A stretch of 20,000 bases of DNA from an uncultured virus (IMG/VR IMGVR_UViG_3300043425_000347) (Duplodnaviria > Heunggongvirae > Uroviricota > Caudoviricetes): IMG/VR virus record IMGVR_UViG_3300043425_000347; one strand, written 5' to 3'. Position numbers and translations under genes: made by a program. Under the pieces are notes generated by a model, which had not been told where the DNA came from, did not search any database, and was given only the letters and a program-made list of their open reading frames with translations. Below are positions 1-19,916 of the stretch, in pieces (the stretch's first letter is position 1; each line of letters begins with the position of its first letter).

Positions 1-653
1 TACAGGTACGGCGCATACGCAGCCGGGTTTGCAAGGATGTACGGATTGAGCGTACCCTCAATATACAGGATGGCTGCGGGGTTAGTCAATGTGCCATTGC
101 TCCACTGAAAGTACACACTGGCGTCGCCTGCGGTAACTGTGCCGCTGTTGTTGATGTCCCCAAGACTGCGACCGTCAATGGTTGTCAGCACAAACGCAGT
201 AAGGCCCGGATTTCGACCAGCCGAGCCTTGCAAAATACCCTGCGTCACGGCGGTGTAGTTGACCTGAAACGGGGCAACTGTTACTTGGCCGACCTCGCAA
301 AGCGCCACCAAGGTGTTGGGGGTCAGGCCGTCGTCGTACGCCCGGGACCCGCCAACCGGATTCCAGCCCCACTGAATGTCCCGGCTGCCGCCTGTCGGAA
401 AGCCTGCCACGTTGGGTCCGGCAGTGACGTATGTGGTGTCCCGGCGTGGGTTGCGCACCGCTTGCGGGTCGTCCACCGGGTACATGCCCAACTGCAACTG
501 CGGCTGATCGGGGTCCCAGCATGAGTCGCAGACCAAGAGGTTGTAGGTCTTGGTCTTGACGATCTCCTTGCGCAGCGCGGTGAGCTTGAAGCGGAAACCG
601 CATCGGTCGCACTGCGCAATCGAGTTCTTGGCACTGGCGAAGCGATTACCCAT
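1..653 (-). CDS. Conserved phage virion-associated protein with two CxxC motifs, partial (runs off window start); C-terminal extension with a dockerin/EF-hand-like loop
   Basis: Not in the ORF track. Manual translation from ATG 653 is open to base 1: MGNRFASAKNSIAQCDRCGFRF...LVCDSCWDPDQPQLQLGMYPVDDPQAVRNPRRD...QWGWNPVGG...GDINNSGTVTAGDA. The start directly follows the stop of the adaptor gene. Confidence 0.85.
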   Translation of the reverse strand, partial: MGNRFASAKNSIAQCDRCGFRFKLTALRKEIVKTKTYNLLVCDSCWDPDQPQLQLGMYPVDDPQAVRNPRRDTTYVTAGPNVAGFPTGGSRDIQWGWNPVGGSRAYDDGLTPNTLVALCEVGQVTVAPFQVNYTAVTQGILQGSAGRNPGLTAFVLTTIDGRSLGDINNSGTVTAGDASVYFQWSNGTLTNPAAILYIEGTLNPYILANPAAYAPYL

Positions 654-10632: not shown

Positions 10633-12165
10633 CTAGTAGTACGCCGCCCTGCGGCGCATGAATGTGCGGTCTTCCTGCTCGTCAGAGTCAAGGGGGATAA
10701 ACCCGCCCCGGCGGAAGCGTAACAGTGCTTGAGATGTGGTGTCAACGTAGTCGTCGTTCTCTCCGTTGGGGAACGATGCAACTTCCTCAATCACCTCGCG
10801 TGCCCACCGAGTGTCTGGAGCCCAGACCACGCCAGAGGCAAAAAGGTCCGCCACCGCGTTGAGCCGGACAATTTTATCGTTGCCGCGACTGGGGCTGAAC
10901 TCCTCGACCGGGATACCCACGGCCCGAAGCTCTTGGATCAGCGGCGCACCAGCGGCTTTCTTCTCAACAATGAACGCATCTGGCGACCACTCTTTATAGT
11001 GTTTGAGCGCAATCGCTTTCAACTCCGGGAACGCCATCCGGTCTTTGAACGCGTCCAGCAGGATCACCTGCGCCTGATCGCGCTCTTCCTCGTTGTAGAA
11101 CACCCCCCACGTGGTGCACGCAGAATAGTCAGCCGTGGTCTTGGCTTCAAACGCCGTATCCCAGCTCTGGATGATGTAGTCGCAGCGGGGCGGCTCATCG
11201 CCCTCCCATACCCGCCAAGACGTGCGCGAGATGATCGCTGCGCTGTTGCTGGTGGGCTGCTGCATGTACTGGGCGTTCCAGTACTGGGGGTCAATGCTGG
11301 CTTTTGTCGCCTTGAGGGTGGCCAGTGGCCACTGCTCTGGCCAGAGCGACTTCTCGTTGTCCGTACCCTCGTTGAGAATTGCGGGGAGTTCGACTATCTC
11401 CCACGGCTCAGCGTCAGGATTCTTGGCTTGGTAGTCGATCAGGCGTCCAGTCAGGTCCAGCTTGCCCCAGCGCGTCATCACAATGATGATCGCACCGCCG
11501 GGCATCAGTCGCTGCAGCGGCCCCGTCTGGAACCAAGACCACGCAGTGTCGAACGCCAGCCTTGAGTTGGCCTTAACGTCCTGCTCCGAGTGAGGATCGT
11601 CAATAACGAACAAATCAGCACCACGACCAGCAAGAGCGCCGCCGACACCAGCAGCATAGTACTGACCGCCAGCACTTGTAGACCACTTACCGGCAGCTTT
11701 TTGATCGTCGGCCACCAGTGTTTGTGGAAAAAGACCATGGTAGTCCTCGTCAGCCAGCAAATTTCGCACCCGGCGACCGAAGTCTTCCGACAAACCCGCC
11801 GTATGGGTGCCCATGATGATCTTCTTCTGGGGGAAGTTGCCCAAGAAGAACGCCGGGAACAGGTATGAGCTGAACTCAGACTTACCCATACGTGGCGCGA
11901 TGTTGATGATCACGCGTTTTTTGGTTCCGGCGATCACTTCGGAGAAGATTTTGGCCAGCTTCCTGTGGTGCGGCCCGATTTTGAAGCCCGGATACACGCT
12001 CTTGGCGAACTCGATCATGTCGGTTCGCGCCAGATTTCTCTGCTGGTGCTCCTGCGCCTTGTCCAGCAGCTCCAACGCCTCCAGCTTCTCGGCAGCCGTG
12101 AGCTTGCCAAGGTTTTTGAACAGCGCCGAGGCTTGTTCAGGCGTCAGTGGCGGGTTGGTCGTCAT
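10633..12165 (-). CDS. terL: Terminase large subunit
   Basis: Walker A-like APRMGKS, Walker B LFVIDDP, motif III VMTRW; nuclease domain SWDTA...IVEKKAAG...DDYVD. Confidence 0.95.
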   Translation of the reverse strand: MTTNPPLTPEQASALFKNLGKLTAAEKLEALELLDKAQEHQQRNLARTDMIEFAKSVYPGFKIGPHHRKLAKIFSEVIAGTKKRVIINIAPRMGKSEFSSYLFPAFFLGNFPQKKIIMGTHTAGLSEDFGRRVRNLLADEDYHGLFPQTLVADDQKAAGKWSTSAGGQYYAAGVGGALAGRGADLFVIDDPHSEQDVKANSRLAFDTAWSWFQTGPLQRLMPGGAIIIVMTRWGKLDLTGRLIDYQAKNPDAEPWEIVELPAILNEGTDNEKSLWPEQWPLATLKATKASIDPQYWNAQYMQQPTSNSAAIISRTSWRVWEGDEPPRCDYIIQSWDTAFEAKTTADYSACTTWGVFYNEEERDQAQVILLDAFKDRMAFPELKAIALKHYKEWSPDAFIVEKKAAGAPLIQELRAVGIPVEEFSPSRGNDKIVRLNAVADLFASGVVWAPDTRWAREVIEEVASFPNGENDDYVDTTSQALLRFRRGGFIPLDSDEQEDRTFMRRRAAYY

Positions 12166-12739
12166 CTGCGGGGGTGATTTCGGTGATGTCCGTGACTTCG
12201 GCGTCTGAGACGTTCATGAACTTGGCCAGCTTTTCTTTCAGGCGCTTGTCGATTTCGTCTTCGGTCATGTCGGTCTTCTTGACCTCGATCTTCTCAGTGA
12301 ACAGGCCCACCTCTGTGACCTTGCCCAAAAGCCCAAGCGCCTTCAGGCGGATGTTGGCGTTGGGGTTTTCACAGTCTTCCAGCAGTTTGGCCACGGCGTA
12401 CCCGCGCAGCTCCTTGGCTTGGTGGACAAATTCCCAGTCGTAGGCCGTCAGCATCCCCACCAGATGGCGCACAGCCGCAGGCGTCTCGATCTTGGAGACC
12501 ATTTCATGCTGCGTGGTGATGGGGGAGGCGGTGGTCATGGCCGAGAAAGTTTCCCGCGCCTGCTGCTTTTCCAACTCGGAGACCGCCGTTTCGGCGTCTG
12601 GGACTCCCATTTCCTTGAGCCAGTCATTGGTGCTGATCTTGCCGTTGAGAAGTTCAACGGGCGGTACCTTCTCCGCAGGAGACGGCGCTTGTGACTTTGG
12701 CAAAACTTCGGGATCGAAGTCAAGGAGGTGGTCTAACAT
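12137..12739 (-). CDS. terS: Probable terminase small subunit
   Basis: 200 aa, first gene of the arm and overlapping terL; contains a RLKALGLLGK...GLFTEKIEV motif. Confidence 0.65.
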   Translation of the reverse strand: MLDHLLDFDPEVLPKSQAPSPAEKVPPVELLNGKISTNDWLKEMGVPDAETAVSELEKQQARETFSAMTTASPITTQHEMVSKIETPAAVRHLVGMLTAYDWEFVHQAKELRGYAVAKLLEDCENPNANIRLKALGLLGKVTEVGLFTEKIEVKKTDMTEDEIDKRLKEKLAKFMNVSDAEVTDITEITPADDDQPATDA

Positions 12740-12771
12740 TTGGTCCTGACGGCTAAGGCCGGAGTTGCGGG

Positions 12772-12800
12772 TTGCTGTCCCGATGGCCGAAGTATATACT
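12772..12800 (+). promoter_or_regulatory. Sigma70 promoter for the candidate sRNA
   Basis: TTGCTG (12772-12777), 17-nt spacer, TATACT (12795-12800). Confidence 0.65.
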
Positions 12801-12820
12801 CACATCCGGCACTGGCGCAA
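12791..12820 (-). promoter_or_regulatory. Candidate late-operon sigma70 promoter
   Basis: Minus strand TTGCGC (12820-12815), 18-nt spacer, TATACT (12796-12791); about 50 nt upstream of terS. Confidence 0.5.
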
Positions 12821-12892
12821 CTTGTTGTTCCTTTGCTTTCTCCTTGGGTCAAGCGACCCTCTTTAGCCCCGGCCAAAAGCCGGGGTTTTTTT
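12807..12892 (+). ncRNA. Candidate trans-acting sRNA complementary to early-gene ribosome-binding sites
   Basis: Promoter upstream, terminator at the 3' end, no credible ORF. TTTGCTTTCTCCTTGGGT (12832-12849) is the reverse complement of ACCCAAGGAGAAAGCAAA, the consensus early RBS. Confidence 0.65.
12867..12892 (+). terminator. Rho-independent terminator
   Basis: CCCCGGC-CAAAA-GCCGGGG-TTTTTTT. Confidence 0.85.
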
Positions 12893-12942
12893 ATGCTTAG
12901 TTTTTTTCAAAAATTTTTAGAAATTTTTTGGGGCGGGCCGTG

Positions 12943-12961
12943 TTGTCAAAACTTAGACAAA
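12943..12961. promoter_or_regulatory. Operator-like inverted repeat, copy 1
   Basis: TTGTCAA-AACT-TAGACAAA; same arms as 19873-19891. Confidence 0.5.
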
Positions 12962-13211
12962 ACTGTGGCTGGATTTTTAAAATAATAGTTAGGTATTACA
13001 GAAGTAGTGGGAGCGGGTGAGGAACAGTGTTGTACTACGCGGCTGTGTTCGGCTCCAATAGTGGCCTATGGGGGTATGGTGGGGTCAGGAAAGTGGCCTT
13101 TTTGCATAGGAAATCGGGCTATCGAGGGCTATCAAACGGGGGTTGCCGGAAACTAGGGTTTGTCGAATGGGGACTGGCCCCAAGAGACACTCAACCCAAC
13201 GGAGAAATACT

Positions 13212-13622
13212 ATGTCGAAACTGACCATTCAACAATTTGCCTTCAACACTGGCGCAATGAGCCGCAAAGTGCGTGATGCTGCCGACCCCTTCCATGCGGC
13301 CTACCTTGGGGCGACACCTGAGCAACGCAAAGACCTGCGCCATCGCTGGATGCTTGGCCACCTTGAGGGCCAAGGCTTCAAGGGCGTAGAGAGAATTCTC
13401 TCTGAGGGCAAAGGCGCTGGGGCCAAGCCTGAGCACGTCAAGGCTATCGACCGGGCTTCGAGCGACTTCCGCTACATGGTCGTGCGCCCCGAGACCAAAC
13501 CCGCCGAGCCAGCCAAGTCCATGCGCCTGAGCCGTGACGTGCGTGCCGCTGCCGAAGCCTACCTTGCCCAGTTCGACAACGTGGCCGATGCAATCAAGGC
13601 TTTGCGTGCCGTGGCCAAGTAA
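13212..13622 (+). CDS. First early-arm protein (136 aa), unknown; C-terminus possibly ribbon-helix-helix-like
   Basis: RBS GGAGAAA before ATG 13212; C-terminal KSMRLSRDVRAAAEAYLAQFDNVADAIKAL. Confidence 0.75.
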   Translation: MSKLTIQQFAFNTGAMSRKVRDAADPFHAAYLGATPEQRKDLRHRWMLGHLEGQGFKGVERILSEGKGAGAKPEHVKAIDRASSDFRYMVVRPETKPAEPAKSMRLSRDVRAAAEAYLAQFDNVADAIKALRAVAK

Positions 13623-13623
13623 A

Positions 13624-13638
13624 TGCGAATGATTCTCA
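13624..13638. promoter_or_regulatory. Fur-box-like 7-1-7 inverted repeat
   Basis: TGCGAAT-G-ATTCTCA, preceded by AAA. Confidence 0.4.
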
Positions 13639-13735
13639 GAGAGATTTCTCTCTCGAATTCAACGGGCGGGGCTGGCCCGTTGTTCCTCCCCATGTCAAAC
13701 CACGCCTAGCCAGCGTGCCCTTTGGAGAAACAGCC

Positions 13736-13924
13736 ATGTTCTGCTACGCAGTATTTCACAACAACACCCAAGTCAGGGTGTACCCATACGACAGCGTGGG
13801 TAACGACTGGCAACGGGCGAGAGCACTCGCCATAGCCCTTGCTGAGAAGGCCGAGACAAACGGCTACCACTACACAGTCGAGCACTTCGGCGCGACTGAT
13901 GTTGGCAAAACAATCTGGAAATAA
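13736..13924 (+). CDS. Hypothetical protein (62 aa)
   Basis: RBS GGAGAAA before ATG 13736. Confidence 0.65.
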   Translation: MFCYAVFHNNTQVRVYPYDSVGNDWQRARALAIALAEKAETNGYHYTVEHFGATDVGKTIWK

Positions 13925-13936
13925 GGAGAAACTTCC

Positions 13937-14164
13937 ATGCGTAACCACAAGCAACCCCACATCGAGACCCTGTGCCAGTGGCGTGACCAAGCAGGCGCAC
14001 TCTGGTGCGCTCAGACCTACTACCCCAACGGCAAACGTGACACAACCTACACCATCCACCTCGTGAGCATGGTCGGCACCACCATCAGCATCCCCTGCGC
14101 CTCAGTCTCCCAGCTGTGGCACGAGGTCAACATCCGCCAGCAACAAGCGTTGCCCGGCTTTTGA
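13937..14164 (+). CDS. Hypothetical protein (75 aa)
   Basis: RBS TAAGGAGAAA before ATG 13937. Confidence 0.7.
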   Translation: MRNHKQPHIETLCQWRDQAGALWCAQTYYPNGKRDTTYTIHLVSMVGTTISIPCASVSQLWHEVNIRQQQALPGF

Positions 14165-15484: not shown

Positions 15485-15574
15485 CGAGAGAGACTTTCTC
15501 TCTGACTTGGCTGTGCTATGCCGCCCACACAGCCGAGCCTACCCCAACGGGCGGCAACCCAAGGAGAAACATCC

Positions 15575-15793
15575 ATGACAACACTGACCGGATCACAAAT
15601 CGAGGCGGCTCGCCTCTTGACCCTACGCCAGATGCTGAAGCTGGAGCTCAAAGGACTGAGCAAGTCCCGTGGGCCAACGGCCTACTCAACGCTCAAGATG
15701 ATGGGATGGAAAGGCACGAGAGAGAAAGTTCTCTCTGACCTTGACGCATGGCGTGATGACTTATTGACAACCAAAGGAGAAAGCAATGCTTGA
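15575..15793 (+). CDS. Hypothetical protein (72 aa)
   Basis: RBS ACCCAAGGAGAAA before ATG 15575 (MTTLTGSQI...LKLELKGL). Confidence 0.75.
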   Translation: MTTLTGSQIEAARLLTLRQMLKLELKGLSKSRGPTAYSTLKMMGWKGTREKVLSDLDAWRDDLLTTKGESNA

Positions 15794-15995
15794 TTACACA
15801 CCACACATGACAGAGAAACAACTCTACGAGGCAGCGTACAAGATGCGCCAAGGCGGCAGCTTTGCCTGCGCCATATCCGACGCGTTCTTTGTAGCAGACA
15901 AGAACAACCGCAAGAAACTGCTCTATGCGTTCGGCGATTTGTTCGTCGAGTTCGCACACACCCCATTCACACCAACCCAAGGAGAGCCAGCATGA
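15786..15995 (+). CDS. Hypothetical protein (69 aa)
   Basis: RBS AAGGAGAAAGCA; contains GGSFA...AFFVADKNN...LLYAFGDLF. Confidence 0.75.
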   Translation: MLDYTPHMTEKQLYEAAYKMRQGGSFACAISDAFFVADKNNRKKLLYAFGDLFVEFAHTPFTPTQGEPA

Positions 15996-16455: not shown

Positions 16456-16547
16456 GATCAAGAGAGAGTTTCTCTCTGACGCCTTGATGGGTGGCGGCCA
16501 TACCGGTATACCCATCATTCCAAACTTGAAACTAAGGAGAAAGCAAA

Positions 16548-17951
16548 ATGCCTACATGGAAAAATCTACGTGAAGCACACCAGTTTATGGACTACGTGTT
16601 CTTGAAAGCCGCACGCATCGTGTCCGATGGCGTGCATGAGCGCGTCCGCTACGGCGAGTACCGCACTGTTGTGCCGGGCCGTCCGTGGTTCAACCAGCAA
16701 CGCACACGTCATGCACTGCACCCTGCTGTGCACGAGATCATGACCGAGTACAAGTACCGCCCGCATAACTGGCATCAACTGTTGCTTGAGTGGCCACACA
16801 AGTCCATCACGGACCCCAACAGGCTGGCCTACACACGTGATGAGAAGTCAGCTATGCATGGCGGTGACAGCGACATCAAAGCGCAGGTGACTACCATCGG
16901 TAAGTATCTGACGCGTCACTTCCCTGACGCACCATCCAATCTTATCCGTGACGTTGCGGCCAAGTTCACATACGGCGGCTCGACCAGCATCACCAACGAC
17001 ATGGACAAGATGGTGTACGCAGTCATCAACGGCCCTCGCTCGTGTATGAGTAGCCACTTCGACATCAGGTGCGATGACGGCAAAACACGCCATCCCTACG
17101 AGGTGTATGACCCATCGCTTGGCTGGGGTATGGCTGTGCGCTCCGAGGAGGGTGAGGTGCTGGGCCGTTGCCTTGTGCATGAGAGCGATGAGGGCAAGGG
17201 GTTTGTGCGCTCATACAAACGTGAGCGTGATGCGCGTTCGCACTCTGGTGCTGACGAGGCCATCGAGGTGTACCTGCAAAGTCTCGGCTATGCCAAGTGG
17301 CGTGGCTGGCCTGAGCACGTGCGTATCATGCGCTATCCCCTGCGCCGTAACGGATTATTGATGCCATACATTGACGGCGGCAATCAGCACGTTGAGGAGG
17401 ACGACGATGTGTTGCGTATCAGTAGCTACGATGGGTGGGAGGCGTGCAGTACCAGCGGCATGATCAACGGCAACGAGCATACGTGTGAGGACTGCGGCGC
17501 TGGGTTCGACGATGACGATGGCGGCTGGACTGGTATCCATGAGGAGCACCATGTGTGCCAGCACTGTCTCGACAACGACTACACCTATGCGTACAGCCGC
17601 AGGGGTAACGAGTACTACATCCGCAACGACGATGTGGTCGAAGTCAATGGCTCGTGGTATGACATCAACCATCTGTCTGACAACAACATCGTCGAGTTGC
17701 ACGATGGTGAGTACGAGGACCTTGACAACGCGGTGTACATCGAGTCAGAGGGTGCGTACTACCACGTTGACGATGACGACATCTGCCACGCCGAGGACAC
17801 TGGCCGGTACGAGTTGAAACATGACTGCTGGCAGTGTGAGGAGTCACGCAACTGGTACACCGAGGACACCGACTACGTTGAAGTAGATGGTGACAAGTAC
17901 CACCCTGACCATGCGCCTGAGCAAGAGACCAACGACACTGAAACAAACTGA
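16548..17951 (+). CDS. Unknown protein with an acidic C-terminal CxxC-repeat region
   Basis: 467 aa; GPRSCM, LGRCL and PYIDG motifs, then CEDC, CQHC and CWQC in a D/E/Y-rich tail; RBS AAGGAGAAAGCAAA. Confidence 0.8.
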   Translation: MPTWKNLREAHQFMDYVFLKAARIVSDGVHERVRYGEYRTVVPGRPWFNQQRTRHALHPAVHEIMTEYKYRPHNWHQLLLEWPHKSITDPNRLAYTRDEKSAMHGGDSDIKAQVTTIGKYLTRHFPDAPSNLIRDVAAKFTYGGSTSITNDMDKMVYAVINGPRSCMSSHFDIRCDDGKTRHPYEVYDPSLGWGMAVRSEEGEVLGRCLVHESDEGKGFVRSYKRERDARSHSGADEAIEVYLQSLGYAKWRGWPEHVRIMRYPLRRNGLLMPYIDGGNQHVEEDDDVLRISSYDGWEACSTSGMINGNEHTCEDCGAGFDDDDGGWTGIHEEHHVCQHCLDNDYTYAYSRRGNEYYIRNDDVVEVNGSWYDINHLSDNNIVELHDGEYEDLDNAVYIESEGAYYHVDDDDICHAEDTGRYELKHDCWQCEESRNWYTEDTDYVEVDGDKYHPDHAPEQETNDTETN

Positions 17952-17964
17952 AGGAGAAACATCC

Positions 17965-19083
17965 ATGACAACACTCAACAAACAATCCATCCTGTACAAA
18001 ACCTTGGCACGTGCGCTGTCCATGATGCGCCCACACAACAGCGAGGGTACACGCCGCCTGACTGACTGGCTCGAACAGCGTGCCCCTGCTCATGCACGCA
18101 CACATCGTGATGGTGCGGGTAACCTGCACGTGGACACACGCATCAGCCCTACCAACCGGACGCTGTTCGTTGCACACGTTGACACTGTGCACCGCAAGGA
18201 AGGCCCCAACAAGATCAAGCAGACCAACACGCACTGGTACGCTGACGGGGCAGCTCTCGGTGCCGATGATGGCGCTGGCGTTGCGATGCTCATGCACCTG
18301 CTACACGCTGGCGTTGATGCTTACTATGTGTTCACGCAAGGCGAGGAGTGTGGCGGCATCGGTGCTACGCATCTTGCCAAGACCCAGAGAGAACTTCTCT
18401 CTGAGTTCGACCGCGCCATTGCCTTTGACCGCAGGGGTATCGACAGCGTCATCACGCACCAAGGCCGGGGTCGCTGCTGCTCTGATGCGTTTGCCGATGC
18501 ACTCAGCGCCGCGCTCAGTGCCGACGATACCCTGATGTACCTGCCCGACAGCACAGGTGTGTACACCGACACGGCCGAGTTCATTGAGGTCATACCCGAG
18601 TGCACCAACATCAGCGTGGGTTACTACTCTGAGCACAGCGACAAAGAGAAGCTGGACATCATCCACTTCCAAGCACTGGCTAATCGTGTGGCCAAGATCG
18701 ACTGGGACTCACTGCCCACCGACCGCGACCCGACTGTGGTTGAGACGATGGACTGGGGCCAGTGGGGGGTGTACTACCCCACGTCTTCGACGGGTGTCAA
18801 CTCTTCTTCTGCGTGGCACCACCTCAGTGATGACGATTGGGACTATGACTCGTACACCATCGAGCTTCAAGAGGCGCTGTACGATGCGCAGGCTGGCTCC
18901 AAGCAGTGGCTGATCGAGCTGATGTGCGAGTCCGTGTGGCCCGAGGACCCAGAGATGGCCGAGCGCCTGATCGACCGCAACAAGATAGACGAGCGCGTGC
19001 TCACTGCCGCACTCAAGGACAGCACCACATACGACCCGACAGTCGTGCTGGCCACAATTTTTGACCAAGCCTATGCGGCATAA
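17965..19083 (+). CDS. Zinc-dependent peptidase, M28/M20/M42 (MH clan) fold (372 aa)
   Basis: Metal-ligand motifs AHVDTV, LGADDGAG, GEECG, AFDR and a distal YSEHS; RBS AAGGAGAAA before ATG 17965. Confidence 0.85.
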   Translation: MTTLNKQSILYKTLARALSMMRPHNSEGTRRLTDWLEQRAPAHARTHRDGAGNLHVDTRISPTNRTLFVAHVDTVHRKEGPNKIKQTNTHWYADGAALGADDGAGVAMLMHLLHAGVDAYYVFTQGEECGGIGATHLAKTQRELLSEFDRAIAFDRRGIDSVITHQGRGRCCSDAFADALSAALSADDTLMYLPDSTGVYTDTAEFIEVIPECTNISVGYYSEHSDKEKLDIIHFQALANRVAKIDWDSLPTDRDPTVVETMDWGQWGVYYPTSSTGVNSSSAWHHLSDDDWDYDSYTIELQEALYDAQAGSKQWLIELMCESVWPEDPEMAERLIDRNKIDERVLTAALKDSTTYDPTVVLATIFDQAYAA

Positions 19084-19098
19084 CCTGAGGAGAAAGCA

Positions 19099-19410
19099 AT
19101 GACTGACGCACTAAAACCCAAAAGTTTCCACACAACAGGGCCGTGGCACTACCGCGAAGGCCACAACGGGGAGTTCCTTATCGCTTGTGAGTCTGGGGGG
19201 TTTGCACCCCTAGCGCGGGTCAAGGGAGACAAGCGCTCCACGCTGAAGGATGCCAAGGCAAACGCGTGCTTGATGGCCGCTGCCCCTGACCTACTGGCCG
19301 CACTGTACGCCATGATGGACAACTGTTACGACCCTGAAAGGGATGACGCCATCGTGCAGGCGTTTGATGCTGCACGCGATGCCATAGCCAAAGCGGAGGG
19401 GTTCAAGTGA
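19099..19410 (+). CDS. Conserved phage protein of the HTxGPW...ANAxLxAAAPDLL type
   Basis: HTTGPW and ANACLMAAAPDLLAAL motifs; RBS GAGGAGAAAGCA. Confidence 0.8.
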   Translation: MTDALKPKSFHTTGPWHYREGHNGEFLIACESGGFAPLARVKGDKRSTLKDAKANACLMAAAPDLLAALYAMMDNCYDPERDDAIVQAFDAARDAIAKAEGFK

Positions 19411-19865: not shown

Positions 19866-19895
19866 TTGACTTTTGTCAAGCGCTAGACAAATAAT
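19866..19895 (+). promoter_or_regulatory. Sigma70-like promoter overlapped by operator-like repeat, copy 2
   Basis: TTGACT (19866-19871), 18-nt spacer, AATAAT (19890-19895); TTGTCAA-GCGC-TAGACAAA at 19873-19891. Confidence 0.55.
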
Positions 19896-19916
19896 GCCCT
19901 TCCCAAGGAGAAAACT

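Follow-up and report, generated by a model that had tools for sequence, protein, structure and literature searches.

What is encoded in the short stretch that separates the two gene arms of an uncultured phage, and what might it do? The phage has a genome of ~62 kb with two divergent arms, and the window that we analysed is a stretch of 20,000 nucleotides around their junction. The plus-strand (early) arm carries genes for DNA polymerase A, an SNF2 helicase, a PD-(D/E)XK nuclease and a DUF927 primase-helicase-like protein, and the minus-strand (late) arm carries those for terminase, portal and capsid. The phage appears to be lytic because no integrase was found among 21 window proteins compared with PHROGs or among 36 proteins of G003 scanned with Pfam. 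The first late-arm gene (12137..12739, minus strand) encodes 200 amino acids, has no PHROG match and lies in the position of the small-terminase gene (terS). Upstream of it, in antisense orientation and at the arm junction, lies a small unit that a sequence-only reading had taken for a trans-acting RNA directed against the ribosome-binding sites (RBSs) of the early genes.

A predicted plus-strand RNA gene between the arms

A −35 hexamer, TTGCTG (12772..12777), and a −10 hexamer, TATACT (12795..12800), could be read from the plus strand, the latter inside the palindrome AGTATATACT (12791-12800). Because the −35 hexamer fits the consensus at only 3 of 6 positions, a consensus scan did not flag this putative promoter, and the support for it is comparative. 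Among 50 distinct relatives with the full unit, 48 kept the arrangement TTGnnn-17-TAyACw and the other 2 had an 18-base spacer; the hexamers were fixed and the spacer sequence varied. The arrangement TTGCTG-17-TATACT that had been read from the window was therefore both present there and kept in relatives. Its type is that of host sigma-70 promoters, as is that of the adjoining early promoter. In silico, the unit thus has a promoter of its own with conserved hexamers and conserved spacing, as expected of an independent bacterial-type sRNA gene.

The predicted sRNA (12807..12892, plus strand) is ~86 nt long. Its 5′ end probably lies 7 bases (plus or minus 2) past the −10 hexamer, and in all 50 distinct sequences a conserved 5′ stem starts 1-2 bases past this position. 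Its 3′ end is the U run of an intrinsic terminator (12865..12892, plus strand), which has a 9-pair stem (12865-12887), 7 pairs of it G-C, and a T run (12886-12892; U7); the description of this terminator as strong was confirmed. The U run was 3′ of the hairpin on the plus strand in every relative, so that a same-strand Rho-independent terminator, a second mark of an independent bacterial-type sRNA gene, is also present. This DNA is GC-rich, which makes plain ORF-based calls uninformative, and genes were called with a self-trained codon model. No gene was called inside the unit, and close relatives are separated by 1- and 2-base indels within it, which would break a reading frame. We therefore agree with the earlier description of the unit as ORF-less.

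The unit was found antisense-upstream of terS in all 76 relative loci with enough sequence, in addition to the window. A pattern search placed it there in 75 of 81 stretches; of the 6 misses, 5 were contigs ending short and 1 had the core variant UCGCUUUCUCC. With a covariance model, the unit was detected in 77 of 100 sources: every terS locus of sufficient length gave one match, and the 18 RBS-only loci and phage DSL-LC04 gave none. The window itself matched model R1 at 12807-12894 with 89 bits. Each of five complete genomes had exactly one strong copy. The relatives derive from freshwater samples; the terS relatives sampled were 80 of 296, and the structure and promoter counts rest on the 50 distinct sequences with the full unit. 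No match to window positions 12000-14000 was found when the phage collection was searched at the DNA level. G001, the nearest record, is a fragment of 3.5 kb that does not include the sRNA region.

The plus strand of 12807..12892 was predicted to fold with a minimum free energy of −34.5 kcal/mol (z = −3.5) into three hairpins, namely SL1, SL2 and the terminator. SL1 (12808..12837, plus strand), the 5′ stem-loop, showed double changes at 2 of its 9 pairs in addition to G-U wobbles, and its region carries insertions with extra hairpins in some relatives. SL2 (12846..12859, plus strand), GGGUC-AAGC-GACCC, showed both-side changes at 5 of 5 pairs across relatives and was absent from L082. The terminator stem had double (compensatory) changes at 8 of 9 pairs, and both-side changes were seen in 15 of the 23 pairs of all stems. 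In an alignment built with a covariance model from 14 close sequences followed by re-alignment, and therefore biased towards the structure of the model, 88.4% of cells were paired versus 72.4% in shuffles (0 of 500 shuffles reached the observed value), and the covariation score was 0.345 versus at most 0.076 for slid partners. MAFFT with RNAalifold recovered only five terminator pairs from the 50 distinct sequences because MAFFT misaligned the hairpins. The fold was better on the plus than on the minus strand in 48 of the 50, with a mean advantage of 6.6 kcal/mol. Covarying secondary structure without a conserved ORF, as expected of an independent sRNA gene, was thus found here. Taken together, the comparisons support a conserved, independently bounded and structured RNA gene on the plus strand.

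Outside the terminator, the sole invariant block was a core, TGCTTTCTCC (12834..12843, plus strand). Mean column identity of the alignment was 35%, and the columns T28, G29, C30 and T32-C37 were invariant in the 50 distinct sequences, with one T optional; the invariant stretch is UGCUU(U)CUCC. Its UGCU forms the 3′ arm of SL1. The anti-Shine-Dalgarno seed, UUCUCCUU (12838..12845, plus strand), was predicted to be single-stranded, the mean unpaired probability of UU(U)CUCC being 0.67-1.0 in all 50. The sequence-only reading had a tract unpaired ahead of the GGGUC/GACCC hairpin. The predicted fold agrees, with UUCUCCUU unpaired between SL1 and that hairpin, but UUUGC is base-paired to the 5′ end. 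Since SL1 takes up the UUGC of the core, an extended pairing with a target could form only if SL1 opened.

Complementarity of the core to early start sites

The sequence ACCCAAGGAGAAAGCAAA is found on the minus strand at 12832-12849, opposite the core. Further copies with at most 3 mismatches were on the plus strand at 15770, 16530 and 19083, each directly 5′ of an ATG. Against these 4 matches, 0.02 were expected, and none of 200 shuffles had as many; the 12-mer AGGAGAAAGCAA occurred 4 times versus 0.10 expected. The core is therefore the reverse complement of an early RBS cassette, as had been claimed, and the weaker sites reported with it (15557-15569, 13194-13207, 19902-19913, 15975-15985, 13922-13931 and 17951-17959) were all found again.

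Five start regions on the plus strand stood out as predicted targets. They are the RBS of the first early gene (ACCCAAcGGAGAAA, 13194..13207; duplex −18.5 kcal/mol, cofold ddG −14.5), the RBS ACCCAAGGAGAAA of a 72-aa gene (15557..15569; duplex −22.8), and the RBS cassettes of a 69-aa gene (15770..15787; duplex −24.2), a 467-aa gene (16530..16547; duplex −25.5 and the best cofold ddG, −16.7) and a 103-aa gene (19083..19100; duplex −28.0). Complementarity to the sRNA was retained by orthologous early genes at 46-60% protein identity. For example, orthologues of the 69-aa gene, 46-60% identical in amino acids, gave duplexes of −20.7 to −24.1 kcal/mol in all 5 other genomes, and those of the 72-aa gene −16.1 to −20.9 in 4 genomes.

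In the window, a duplex of −15 kcal/mol or lower was predicted for 8 of 12 early but 2 of 20 late start sites. With a threshold of −18 kcal/mol, the early and late fractions were 6/12 vs 2/20, 18/39 vs 3/41 and 16/34 vs 3/46, and for the remaining sequences 19/40 vs 3/39, 12/39 vs 2/42 and 11/51 vs 5/44, so that early sites outpaired late ones in 6 of 6 genomes. When the flanks of the seed were shuffled with CUCC fixed, no shuffled seed matched the early-arm mean of the real one in five of the six sequences, and 2 of 200 did in the sixth. The same preference appeared in the cofold ddG of the complete sRNA in its folded form (p from 1e-3 to 2e-6), where the p-values overstate the support as the relatives share phylogeny and are not independent. 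By this measure the six best sites of the window were all early. These results agree with the expectation that early start regions pair better than late ones. The seed is accessible, conserved and complementary to start regions, with enrichment over non-targets, as expected of an anti-Shine-Dalgarno (anti-SD) RNA acting in trans.

The two arms differ in their Shine-Dalgarno (SD) flavour. GGAGAA within 22 bases of the start codon was found in 106 of 215 early-arm versus 12 of 232 late-arm genes, and 106 of 152 early versus 12 of 75 late sites bearing GGAG had it. The proposal that the seed matches an early-specific flavour was borne out by these counts. The early arm also has generally stronger 16S-type SDs, so the contrast in pairing partly reflects plain SD strength. 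In addition, the closest isolate, DSL-LC04 (terL 54% identical), had a weaker GGAGAA bias (10/32 vs 4/38) but no match to R1, and across 50 of its 61.5 kb no unit combining an anti-SD with a terminator was convincing. The flavour is therefore independent of the sRNA, as far as can be judged from a control that is imperfect in having nearly all its genes co-directional.

How much of the long matches is maintained could be judged from relatives with a different seed or flank. Exact copies of GGAGAAAGCAA numbered 3-7 per sequence, always on the early strand except for the complement of the sRNA gene. G002, G004 and G005 have a core shorter by one base, UUGCUUCUCC, but their GGAGAAAGCAA sites are unchanged (5-6 copies), and GGAGAAGCAA was not found in these three. 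The sRNAs of the G006 clade lack complementarity to ACCCAA in the flank 3′ of CUCC, but the ACCCAAGGAG sites are retained in these phages. Covariation of the seed with the early RBSs among relatives, which the sequence-only reading had led one to expect, was thus absent: neither the indel of a T in the core nor the flank of the G006 clade was mirrored in the cassettes. The 17-base matches must therefore be partly incidental. The conserved pairing is only ~8-9 bases, AAGGAGAA(A), by these comparisons. A pairing of this length would make the RNA a nearly generic anti-SD, which would pair with host mRNAs as well.

Readings of the unit

The best reading, to which we give roughly an even chance, is that the RNA is a trans-acting anti-SD repressor of the early genes. 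Host RNA polymerase would start at the sigma-70-type promoter (12772-12800) and stop at the terminator (12865-12892), yielding an RNA of ~86 nt with the invariant single-stranded pyrimidine tract UU(U)CUCCU(U) on display between SL1 and SL2. The tract would pair with AAGGAGAA(A), the SD flavour of the early/replication arm that the late/structural arm avoids. This pairing would mask the ribosome-binding site and, in some genes, would reach the spacer and the upstream ACCC. The 30S subunits would be kept off the early mRNAs, which would then probably be exposed to decay. Overall, early protein synthesis would be slowed or shut off by a phage-encoded RNA alone, with the late genes spared.

Behind this reading are the in silico comparisons, which showed that the gene, its strand and its fold are conserved, that the seed is invariant and exposed, that the RBS flavour is specific to an arm and that early sites are preferred in the complementarity. 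From them we infer production of the RNA, its binding to early mRNAs, the direction and timing of its effect and any need for Hfq. Of the silencer first proposed, the conserved RNA gene and the early bias of its complementarity stand; the covariation of seed and targets does not. Its timing may also differ from that first proposed. The sigma-70-type sRNA promoter adjoins the early promoter, a promoter-like TAGACA-18-TAAAAT that overlaps the palindrome TGTCAAAACTTAGACA (12944..12983, plus strand) downstream of the sRNA terminator. The type and position of the sRNA promoter suggest that the sRNA is produced alongside its proposed early targets, and a simple late shut-off therefore fits poorly.

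The terS side of the unit also has a possible promoter. A leftward promoter-like site, TTGCGC-18-TATACT (12791..12820, minus strand; −35 at 12820..12815, −10 at 12796..12791), points at terS and overlaps the −10 hexamer of the sRNA by 2 bases. The form TTGCnn-17..19-TAnAnT was kept in 42 of 45 distinct promoter regions and absent from the other 3, and its GCAA was at a constant distance from the −10, whether in a stem or a loop of the RNA. The −10 of the sRNA is palindromic, as AGTATATACT in the window and AGTGTACACT in relatives. The leftward site may work as a promoter, and its overlap with a palindromic −10 leaves room for a role in cis. In an extended reading, which we regard as doubtful, the early regulon would be defined by the SD flavour AAGGAGAAA, which the late genes avoid, and controlled as a whole by one ~86-nt anti-SD RNA. 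Because the sRNA promoter and the leftward promoter of the packaging/late operon would have the palindromic −10 in common, the late promoter could not fire whenever the sRNA promoter did, and a 50-bp switch would couple early silencing to late onset.

The unit might instead act mainly in cis on the late operon, either by competition with the leftward terS promoter, with polymerase binding at the common palindromic −10 being mutually exclusive, or as an antisense to a late-strand transcript from a start further upstream, in this second case through interference by convergent transcription or through RNA duplex formation and cleavage; its anti-SD look would then be secondary. We consider this unlikely. 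It would account for the palindromic −10, for the leftward arrangement in 42 of 45 regions with its constant GCAA spacing, and for the position of the gene exactly at the arm junction. Late-strand read-through antisense to the sRNA is plausible, because L036 and L053 have late-strand clusters of 3 and 6 tRNA genes that end 2 bases from the sRNA terminator, with no late-strand terminator between the clusters and terS. On the other hand, promoter competition alone selects neither covarying stems nor a terminator, and an antisense RNA is complementary whatever its sequence, which leaves the invariant single-stranded tract of 9-10 bases unaccounted for. No late-strand promoter was identified upstream of the unit in the window, none being convincing from 12893 to 13212, and the leftward site, which 3 of 45 regions lack, is the one with the poorer spacing (mostly 18). 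A role in cis is compatible with the trans model, and the two can coexist. A further reading, with a somewhat smaller chance, is a general anti-SD inhibitor chiefly of host mRNAs, which would bring about host shut-off or growth arrest, the early phage sites merely mimicking strong host RBSs. The conserved pairing, AAGGAGAA(A), is close to a generic strong SD, and the GGAGAA bias is found in the replication genes of a phage without the sRNA. The nearest Rfam models, both on the plus strand, are also suggestive: RF02837 (anti-hemB, Burkholderia RNA 7; 27 bits, E = 1.6e-4 on 301 bases) and the toxic-sRNA model RF02278 (24.1 bits, E = 0.007 on 301 bases), whose CU-rich unpaired tracts are complementary to RBSs according to the available part of PMC5688073 and one of whose members, ncS27, slows growth on overexpression according to that of PMC4603805. 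But these scores are far under the gathering thresholds of 49.5 and 50, respectively, and the RF02278 match is carried by UCUCC and the terminator. The best pairing being with the phage's own replication genes would be harmful to the phage, unless this pairing is the point, and the avoidance of GGAGAA in the late arm (12/232) would be expected if phage genes are subject to the RNA.

It is improbable that the pyrimidine tract binds a protein instead of serving as a pairing seed, so as to sequester or recruit ribosomal protein S1, Hfq or an RNA-binding protein of the phage. The tract is indeed invariant, single-stranded, U/C-rich and next to a hairpin, in an RNA that ends in a long U tail, and a precedent for control centred on S1 exists in its reading of early sites with GGA and A-rich sequence for T4 RegB (PMC1702504, in the part available). 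However, we could name no protein partner, and exact complementarity to an arm-specific RBS flavour would be a coincidence. We also considered an attenuated leader of the early operon; the terminator is strong (U7-U15), and a separate early promoter follows it. We find it hardly credible that the plus-strand sRNA is an illusion and that the motif works as a standby site for terS or as the RBS of a leader ORF translated from the minus strand. The cassette is a perfect SD on the late strand, an ATG or GTG is at the right distance in ~20 of the 50 distinct sequences (for example, L028, L074 and L104), and in L074 and L075 the frame continues into terS. But the start codon is not conserved, being AGG in the window and AAG, ACG or ACU in ~30 of the 50, and the frame is broken between close relatives by the indels of 1 and 2 bases and also by 30-40-base insertions. 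The promoter, U run and G-U wobbles are all those of the plus strand, and the codon model called no gene at the site. The leader ORF was rejected for its unconserved start codon and the indels in its frame.

Temporal control in lytic phages is usually ascribed to promoters, sigma factors, anti-terminators and a few mRNA-acting proteins such as RegA and RegB of T4. An sRNA whose seed mirrors the RBSs of a whole arm would, if the repressor reading is true, add a post-transcriptional, RNA-only layer to the timing of lytic phages. It would also give a reason for the differing SD flavours of early and late genes in one phage, and would be a compact natural design, one seed and a tagged class of RBSs, for switching sets of genes. 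Reporters could test the element directly without the natural host, because it is short, has sharp boundaries and occurs in at least 76 related environmental phage contigs. In the literature searched, including the accessible part of a 2025 review (PMC12197685), we found no lytic phage described as having an anti-SD sRNA that acts on a whole regulon.

Comparison with known systems

In its proposed mode the phage sRNA resembles the CU-rich sRNAs of Burkholderia, but it is not a member of their Rfam families. The double-hairpin ('toxic') sRNAs (RF02278: ncS03, ncS05, ncS27 and ncS62) and anti-hemB (RF02837) gave Rfam's best, sub-threshold, same-strand matches to the window, in which no match reached gathering level. 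In the accessible parts of two reports, unpaired CU-rich tracts covering RBSs are the supposed mode of action of the toxic sRNAs (PMC5688073), 55-80% of their predicted interactions are on start regions, and their overexpression slows growth (PMC5688073; PMC4603805). RF02278 members have two hairpins and CU-rich tracts, whereas the phage sRNA has three hairpins and, from SL1 to SL2, a single CU tract that is unpaired. The Burkholderia RNAs are encoded by bacterial chromosomal genes in 3-5 copies per genome. In contrast, the predicted phage sRNA occurs once in each phage genome, always at the arm junction, and has the phage's own early genes as predicted targets.

Small RNAs that act on an RBS are known from phages. 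One is sar of P22, an antisense RNA that masks a ribosome-binding site. Another is c4 of P1 and P7, which pairs around an RBS so that a phage gene is not translated, as outlined in the available part of PMC12197685. Both control one gene (ant), in temperate phages and for immunity, whereas here the phage appears lytic and the complementarity is arm-wide. The C4 model (RF01695) gave no Rfam match at E up to 10 in 12300-13400.

A parallel in effect would be found in phage T4, which is unrelated to this phage. RegA of T4 is a repressor of many early start sites. The site of the RegB/S1 system is 11 nt long and single-stranded, with GGA followed by A-rich sequence (PMC1702504, in the part available). 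As with RegB, the early mRNAs here would be selectively inactivated through a signature in their RBSs, which in this early arm is GGAG with AAA after it. A Pfam scan of 36 proteins of G003 (of 80 genes called) gave no RegB-like family. The effectors RegB and RegA are proteins, whereas the proposed effector here is an RNA; if the repressor reading is true, the sRNA would be an RNA analogue of T4 RegB/RegA.

The gap between the two gene arms

The window comes from a tailed phage. Its late arm occupies minus-strand positions 12739 to 1 and opens with a 200-aa gene in the position of the small terminase (terS), followed by large terminase, portal, GroES-like, major head protein and further structural genes. 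On the plus strand the early arm starts at 13212; it comprises small genes whose function is unknown, along with those for a 467-aa protein and a peptidase. The unit proposed by the sequence-only reading as an sRNA gene sits within the 470-base gap where the arms diverge. Its parts, all on the plus strand, are present as that reading described them: a promoter with -35 hexamer TTGCTG (12772-12777), 17-base spacer and -10 hexamer TATACT (12795-12800), a stretch of about 86 bases without a conserved ORF, the core TTTGCTTTCTCCTTGGGT (12832-12849), and a terminator (12865-12887) followed by seven T. A GGGTC/GACCC hairpin lies between core and terminator. A consensus promoter scan did not flag this promoter because its -35 matches just 3 of 6 positions; the sole flag was TAGACA-18-TAAAAT at 12954-12983. 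The complement of the core and three near-copies ahead of early start codons make 4 matches, against 0.02 expected.

Other conserved elements share this gap. Directly after the terminator, phased A and T tracts (TTTTTTTCAAAAATTTTTAGAAATTTTTT, 12893-12931), conserved in the close clade, probably form bent DNA or serve the early promoter as an UP-like element. The palindrome TGTC-N8-GACA has two copies in the window, TGTCAAAACTTAGACA (12944-12959) and TGTCAAGCGCTAGACA (19874-19889), each overlapping a -35-like sequence (TAGACA or TTGAC) ahead of early genes; in relatives the palindrome is perfect, TGTCTAACATTAGACA, and follows the sRNA terminator. We regard the palindrome as a candidate operator for an early-gene regulator, and its count alone is weak (2 matches versus 0.47 expected; 15 of 200 shuffles reach 2). 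In the leader of about 220 bases between early promoter and first early gene, strongly conserved G-rich blocks, TGGGAGCGGGTG.GGAACAGTGTT and GGGGGTAyGGTGGGGT (13005-13090), are separated by variable sequence; they have no Rfam match and may act as a structured leader or bind a protein.

In IMG/VR the terS protein has 296 relatives, and we analyzed the window together with the best 80 of these loci (63-93% identity). A simple pattern on the strand opposite terS (in order TTGnnn, 16-18 bases, TAyACw, core TGCTT(T)CTCC, T run) recovered the unit in 75 of the 81 terS-upstream stretches. Five misses were contigs ending within 100 bases, and the remaining one, locus L056, had the core variant TCGCTTTCTCC. 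Among the 50 distinct unit sequences the promoter spacer was 17 bases in 48 and 18 in 2; the hexamers were fixed across relatives while the spacer sequence varied. A covariance model trained on 14 close sequences gave 77 matches in 100 sources, one per terS locus with enough sequence, and exactly one strong match in each of five complete relative genomes of 61-67 kb (G002-G006). It had no match in 18 loci holding only the RBS cassette, the ribosome-binding sequence complementary to the core, nor in DSL-LC04, the closest isolate phage. The original observation is confirmed, and the unit is very probably a real, conserved, plus-strand sRNA gene.

Predicted fold and exposed tract

The window RNA is predicted to fold into a 5′ stem-loop (SL1), single-stranded UUCUCCUU, a second hairpin (SL2) and the terminator (-34.5 kcal/mol, z = -3.5). 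The same four-part layout was predicted for all 50 distinct sequences except L082, which is without SL2; in some relatives extra hairpins are inserted into SL1. For 48 of the 50 sequences the plus strand gave the more stable fold, with a mean advantage of 6.6 kcal/mol, as expected from G-U wobbles; the Wilcoxon p = 1e-9 overstates this contrast because the sequences share ancestry. In an alignment of 52 distinct rows fitted to the covariance model, which favours the structure, 88.4% of cells were paired versus 72.4% in shuffles (0 of 500 as high), and the covariation score was 0.345 versus at most 0.076 with slid partners. Double-sided changes occurred at 15 of 23 pairs (SL2 5/5, terminator 8/9, SL1 2/9), with additional one-sided C-G to U-G changes in SL1. 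The first paired base lay 1-2 bases past the start inferred from the -10 in all sequences.

Reading the cassette as the RBS of a translated minus-strand ORF was rejected. The cassette is a perfect Shine-Dalgarno sequence (SD) on the late strand; the start codon is not conserved, with ATG or GTG following in about 20 of 50 distinct sequences, AGG in the window and AAG, ACG or ACU in the remaining sequences, and indels break the frame. Such 1- and 2-base indels within the unit separate close relatives, so that neither strand has a conserved reading frame.

Mean column identity in the 50-sequence alignment was 35%, and the only invariant columns outside the terminator were T-G-C-(T)-T-T-C-T-C-C. 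Within this core, UGC is predicted to pair with the 5′ end of the RNA, closing SL1; UU(U)CUCC and the next U are predicted to be unpaired in every sequence (probability 0.67-1.0). Stems that drift with compensating changes, beside an exposed tract that stays frozen, are what usually marks a base-pairing seed. We consider it likely that the sRNA acts through this tract as an anti-SD seed.

Predicted pairing with early genes, and alternatives

Genes were called with a self-trained codon model in the window and the five complete relatives; every genome had two divergent arms with the sRNA at their junction. The plus arm of G003 (scan of 36 of 80 called genes) encodes NinX, an M28-like peptidase, DUF3310, a resolvase-like protein, DNA polymerase A, a PD-(D/E)XK nuclease, an SNF2 helicase and a DUF927 protein, which identifies it as the early/replication arm. 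The scanned proteins included no integrase. The late arm of G003 contains a 3192-aa protein (27960-37538; L112 7960-17538, minus strand), very large for a 62-kb phage, whose sole Pfam match is LPD38, near the C-terminus.

Of 215 early-arm genes, 106 had GGAGAA no more than 22 bases from the start codon, compared with 12 of 232 late-arm genes; given GGAG, the next two bases were AA at 106 of 152 early sites versus 12 of 75 late ones. AAGGAGAAA and the exposed UUUCUCCUU are exactly complementary. Each sequence has 3-7 exact copies of GGAGAAAGCAA, all of them downstream of the sRNA on the early strand; its sole other copy is the complement of the sRNA gene. Of the 26 IMG/VR loci that bear the 18-mer ACCCAAGGAGAAAGCAAA (L001-L026), 21 have it letter for letter as a stop-RBS-start junction, TAACCCAAGGAGAAAGCAAATG; L009 is without the ATG and the other 4 are sRNA genes. 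The cassette is unusually frozen between genes and phages in these loci.

With each genome's own seed, early start regions outpaired late ones, as had been claimed. Duplexes of -18 kcal/mol or lower were formed by 6/12 early and 2/20 late regions in the window, 18/39 and 3/41 in G002, 16/34 and 3/46 in G003, 19/40 and 3/39 in G004, 12/39 and 2/42 in G005, and 11/51 and 5/44 in G006. Seeds with shuffled flanks (CUCC fixed) reached the real early-arm mean in 2 of 200 shuffles in G006 and in none in the other five sequences. The contrast held in co-folding of the whole folded sRNA (p 1e-3 to 2e-6), where the six best window sites were all early, in line with the expected ranking. Orthologous early genes retain complementarity despite protein divergence: the 69-aa gene starting at 15786 gave duplexes of -20.7 to -24.2 in all six sequences at 46-60% identity.

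Several results stand against pairing in trans with early ribosome-binding sites. The expected covariation of seed and targets failed: the shorter core UUGCUUCUCC of G002, G004 and G005 is not mirrored at their sites, which include 5-6 copies of GGAGAAAGCAA each and zero of GGAGAAGCAA. In the G006 clade the flank after the seed is CUCCUAUUGG, mismatched to the ACCCAAGGAG sites retained there. Thus the 16-17-base matches reported for the window are present but partly incidental, drawing on the SL1 3′ arm and SL2 5′ arm; the conserved pairing length is 8-9 bases. SDs of the 16S type are generally stronger in the early arm. DSL-LC04, with no detectable sRNA copy, has a weaker GGAGAA bias (10/32 replication-region versus 4/38 structural genes), and one of its sites reads GGAGAAAGCAAAATG. 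The sRNA promoter is host-type and adjoins the early promoter; from this arrangement, the sRNA is probably made alongside its proposed targets rather than late. That the phage's own early mRNAs are the main targets is a prediction for which we find the case evenly balanced.

The unit could also have a cis role in late-operon control, through an overlapping leftward promoter, an antisense late-strand transcript, or both. Its -10 lies inside a perfect palindrome, AGTATATACT (AGTGTACACT in relatives), and a promoter-like TTGCGC-18-TATACT is aimed at terS and would yield a 45-base leader. Such an arrangement is retained in 42 of 45 distinct promoter regions, the GCAA of the leftward site staying equally far from the -10 regardless of whether an RNA stem or a GNRA-type loop contains it. 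Because their -10 hexamers share two bases, the two promoters could not be occupied simultaneously. In L036 and L053, late-strand tRNA clusters of three and six genes end two bases from the sRNA terminator, with no late-strand terminator between cluster and terS; these two phages are likely to make a late-strand transcript antisense to the sRNA. Neither leftward promoter nor antisense transcript accounts for the covarying stems or for a tract that stays both exposed and frozen, and we therefore rank these cis features as additions to pairing in trans, not replacements.

These tRNA genes (L036 2008-2319, L053 1748-2355; Pro, Tyr, Asn, then Thr, Ser, Ser) form a cassette between an AT-rich tract and the sRNA terminator, preceded by conserved AAAAACTCGGGTACACT; the window is without it. 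In one relative, L073, ARAGORN found a tRNA-like gene with a four-base anticodon (caag) adjoining the sRNA unit (2186-2258). Between terS start and sRNA -35 (window equivalent 12740-12771), L036, L041, L043 and L046 have an insertion of about 35 bases with its own hairpin (CAGCAAC...GTTGCCTG). In the distant clade, a 6-bp inverted repeat (GCGCAT...ATGCGC) carries the terS AUG in its 3′ arm.

Comparison with known systems

No gathering-level Rfam match was found anywhere in the window. The two best matches of a relaxed search, both on the plus strand at 12829-12894, were anti-hemB (27 bits; gathering score 49.5) and Betaproteobacteria toxic sRNA (24.1 bits; gathering score 50), and both rest on UCUCC plus the terminator. 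Burkholderia CU-rich sRNAs are short RNAs whose unpaired CU-rich tracts are the reverse complement of RBSs, with 55-80% of predicted interactions at start regions and slower growth upon ncS27 overexpression (PMC5688073, PMC4603805). The phage sRNA works alike on paper, yet is not a member. In the literature searched, review PMC12197685 included, we found no description of a regulon-wide anti-SD sRNA in a lytic phage; c4 of P1/P7, as that review presents it, masks one RBS (PMC12197685). The closest system in function is T4 RegB with S1. Its inactivation of early mRNAs takes place at a single-stranded site of 11 nt comprising GGA and an A-rich stretch (PMC1702504). The early-gene tag is alike, here GGAGAAA, but its reader is a protein in T4 and would be an RNA here.
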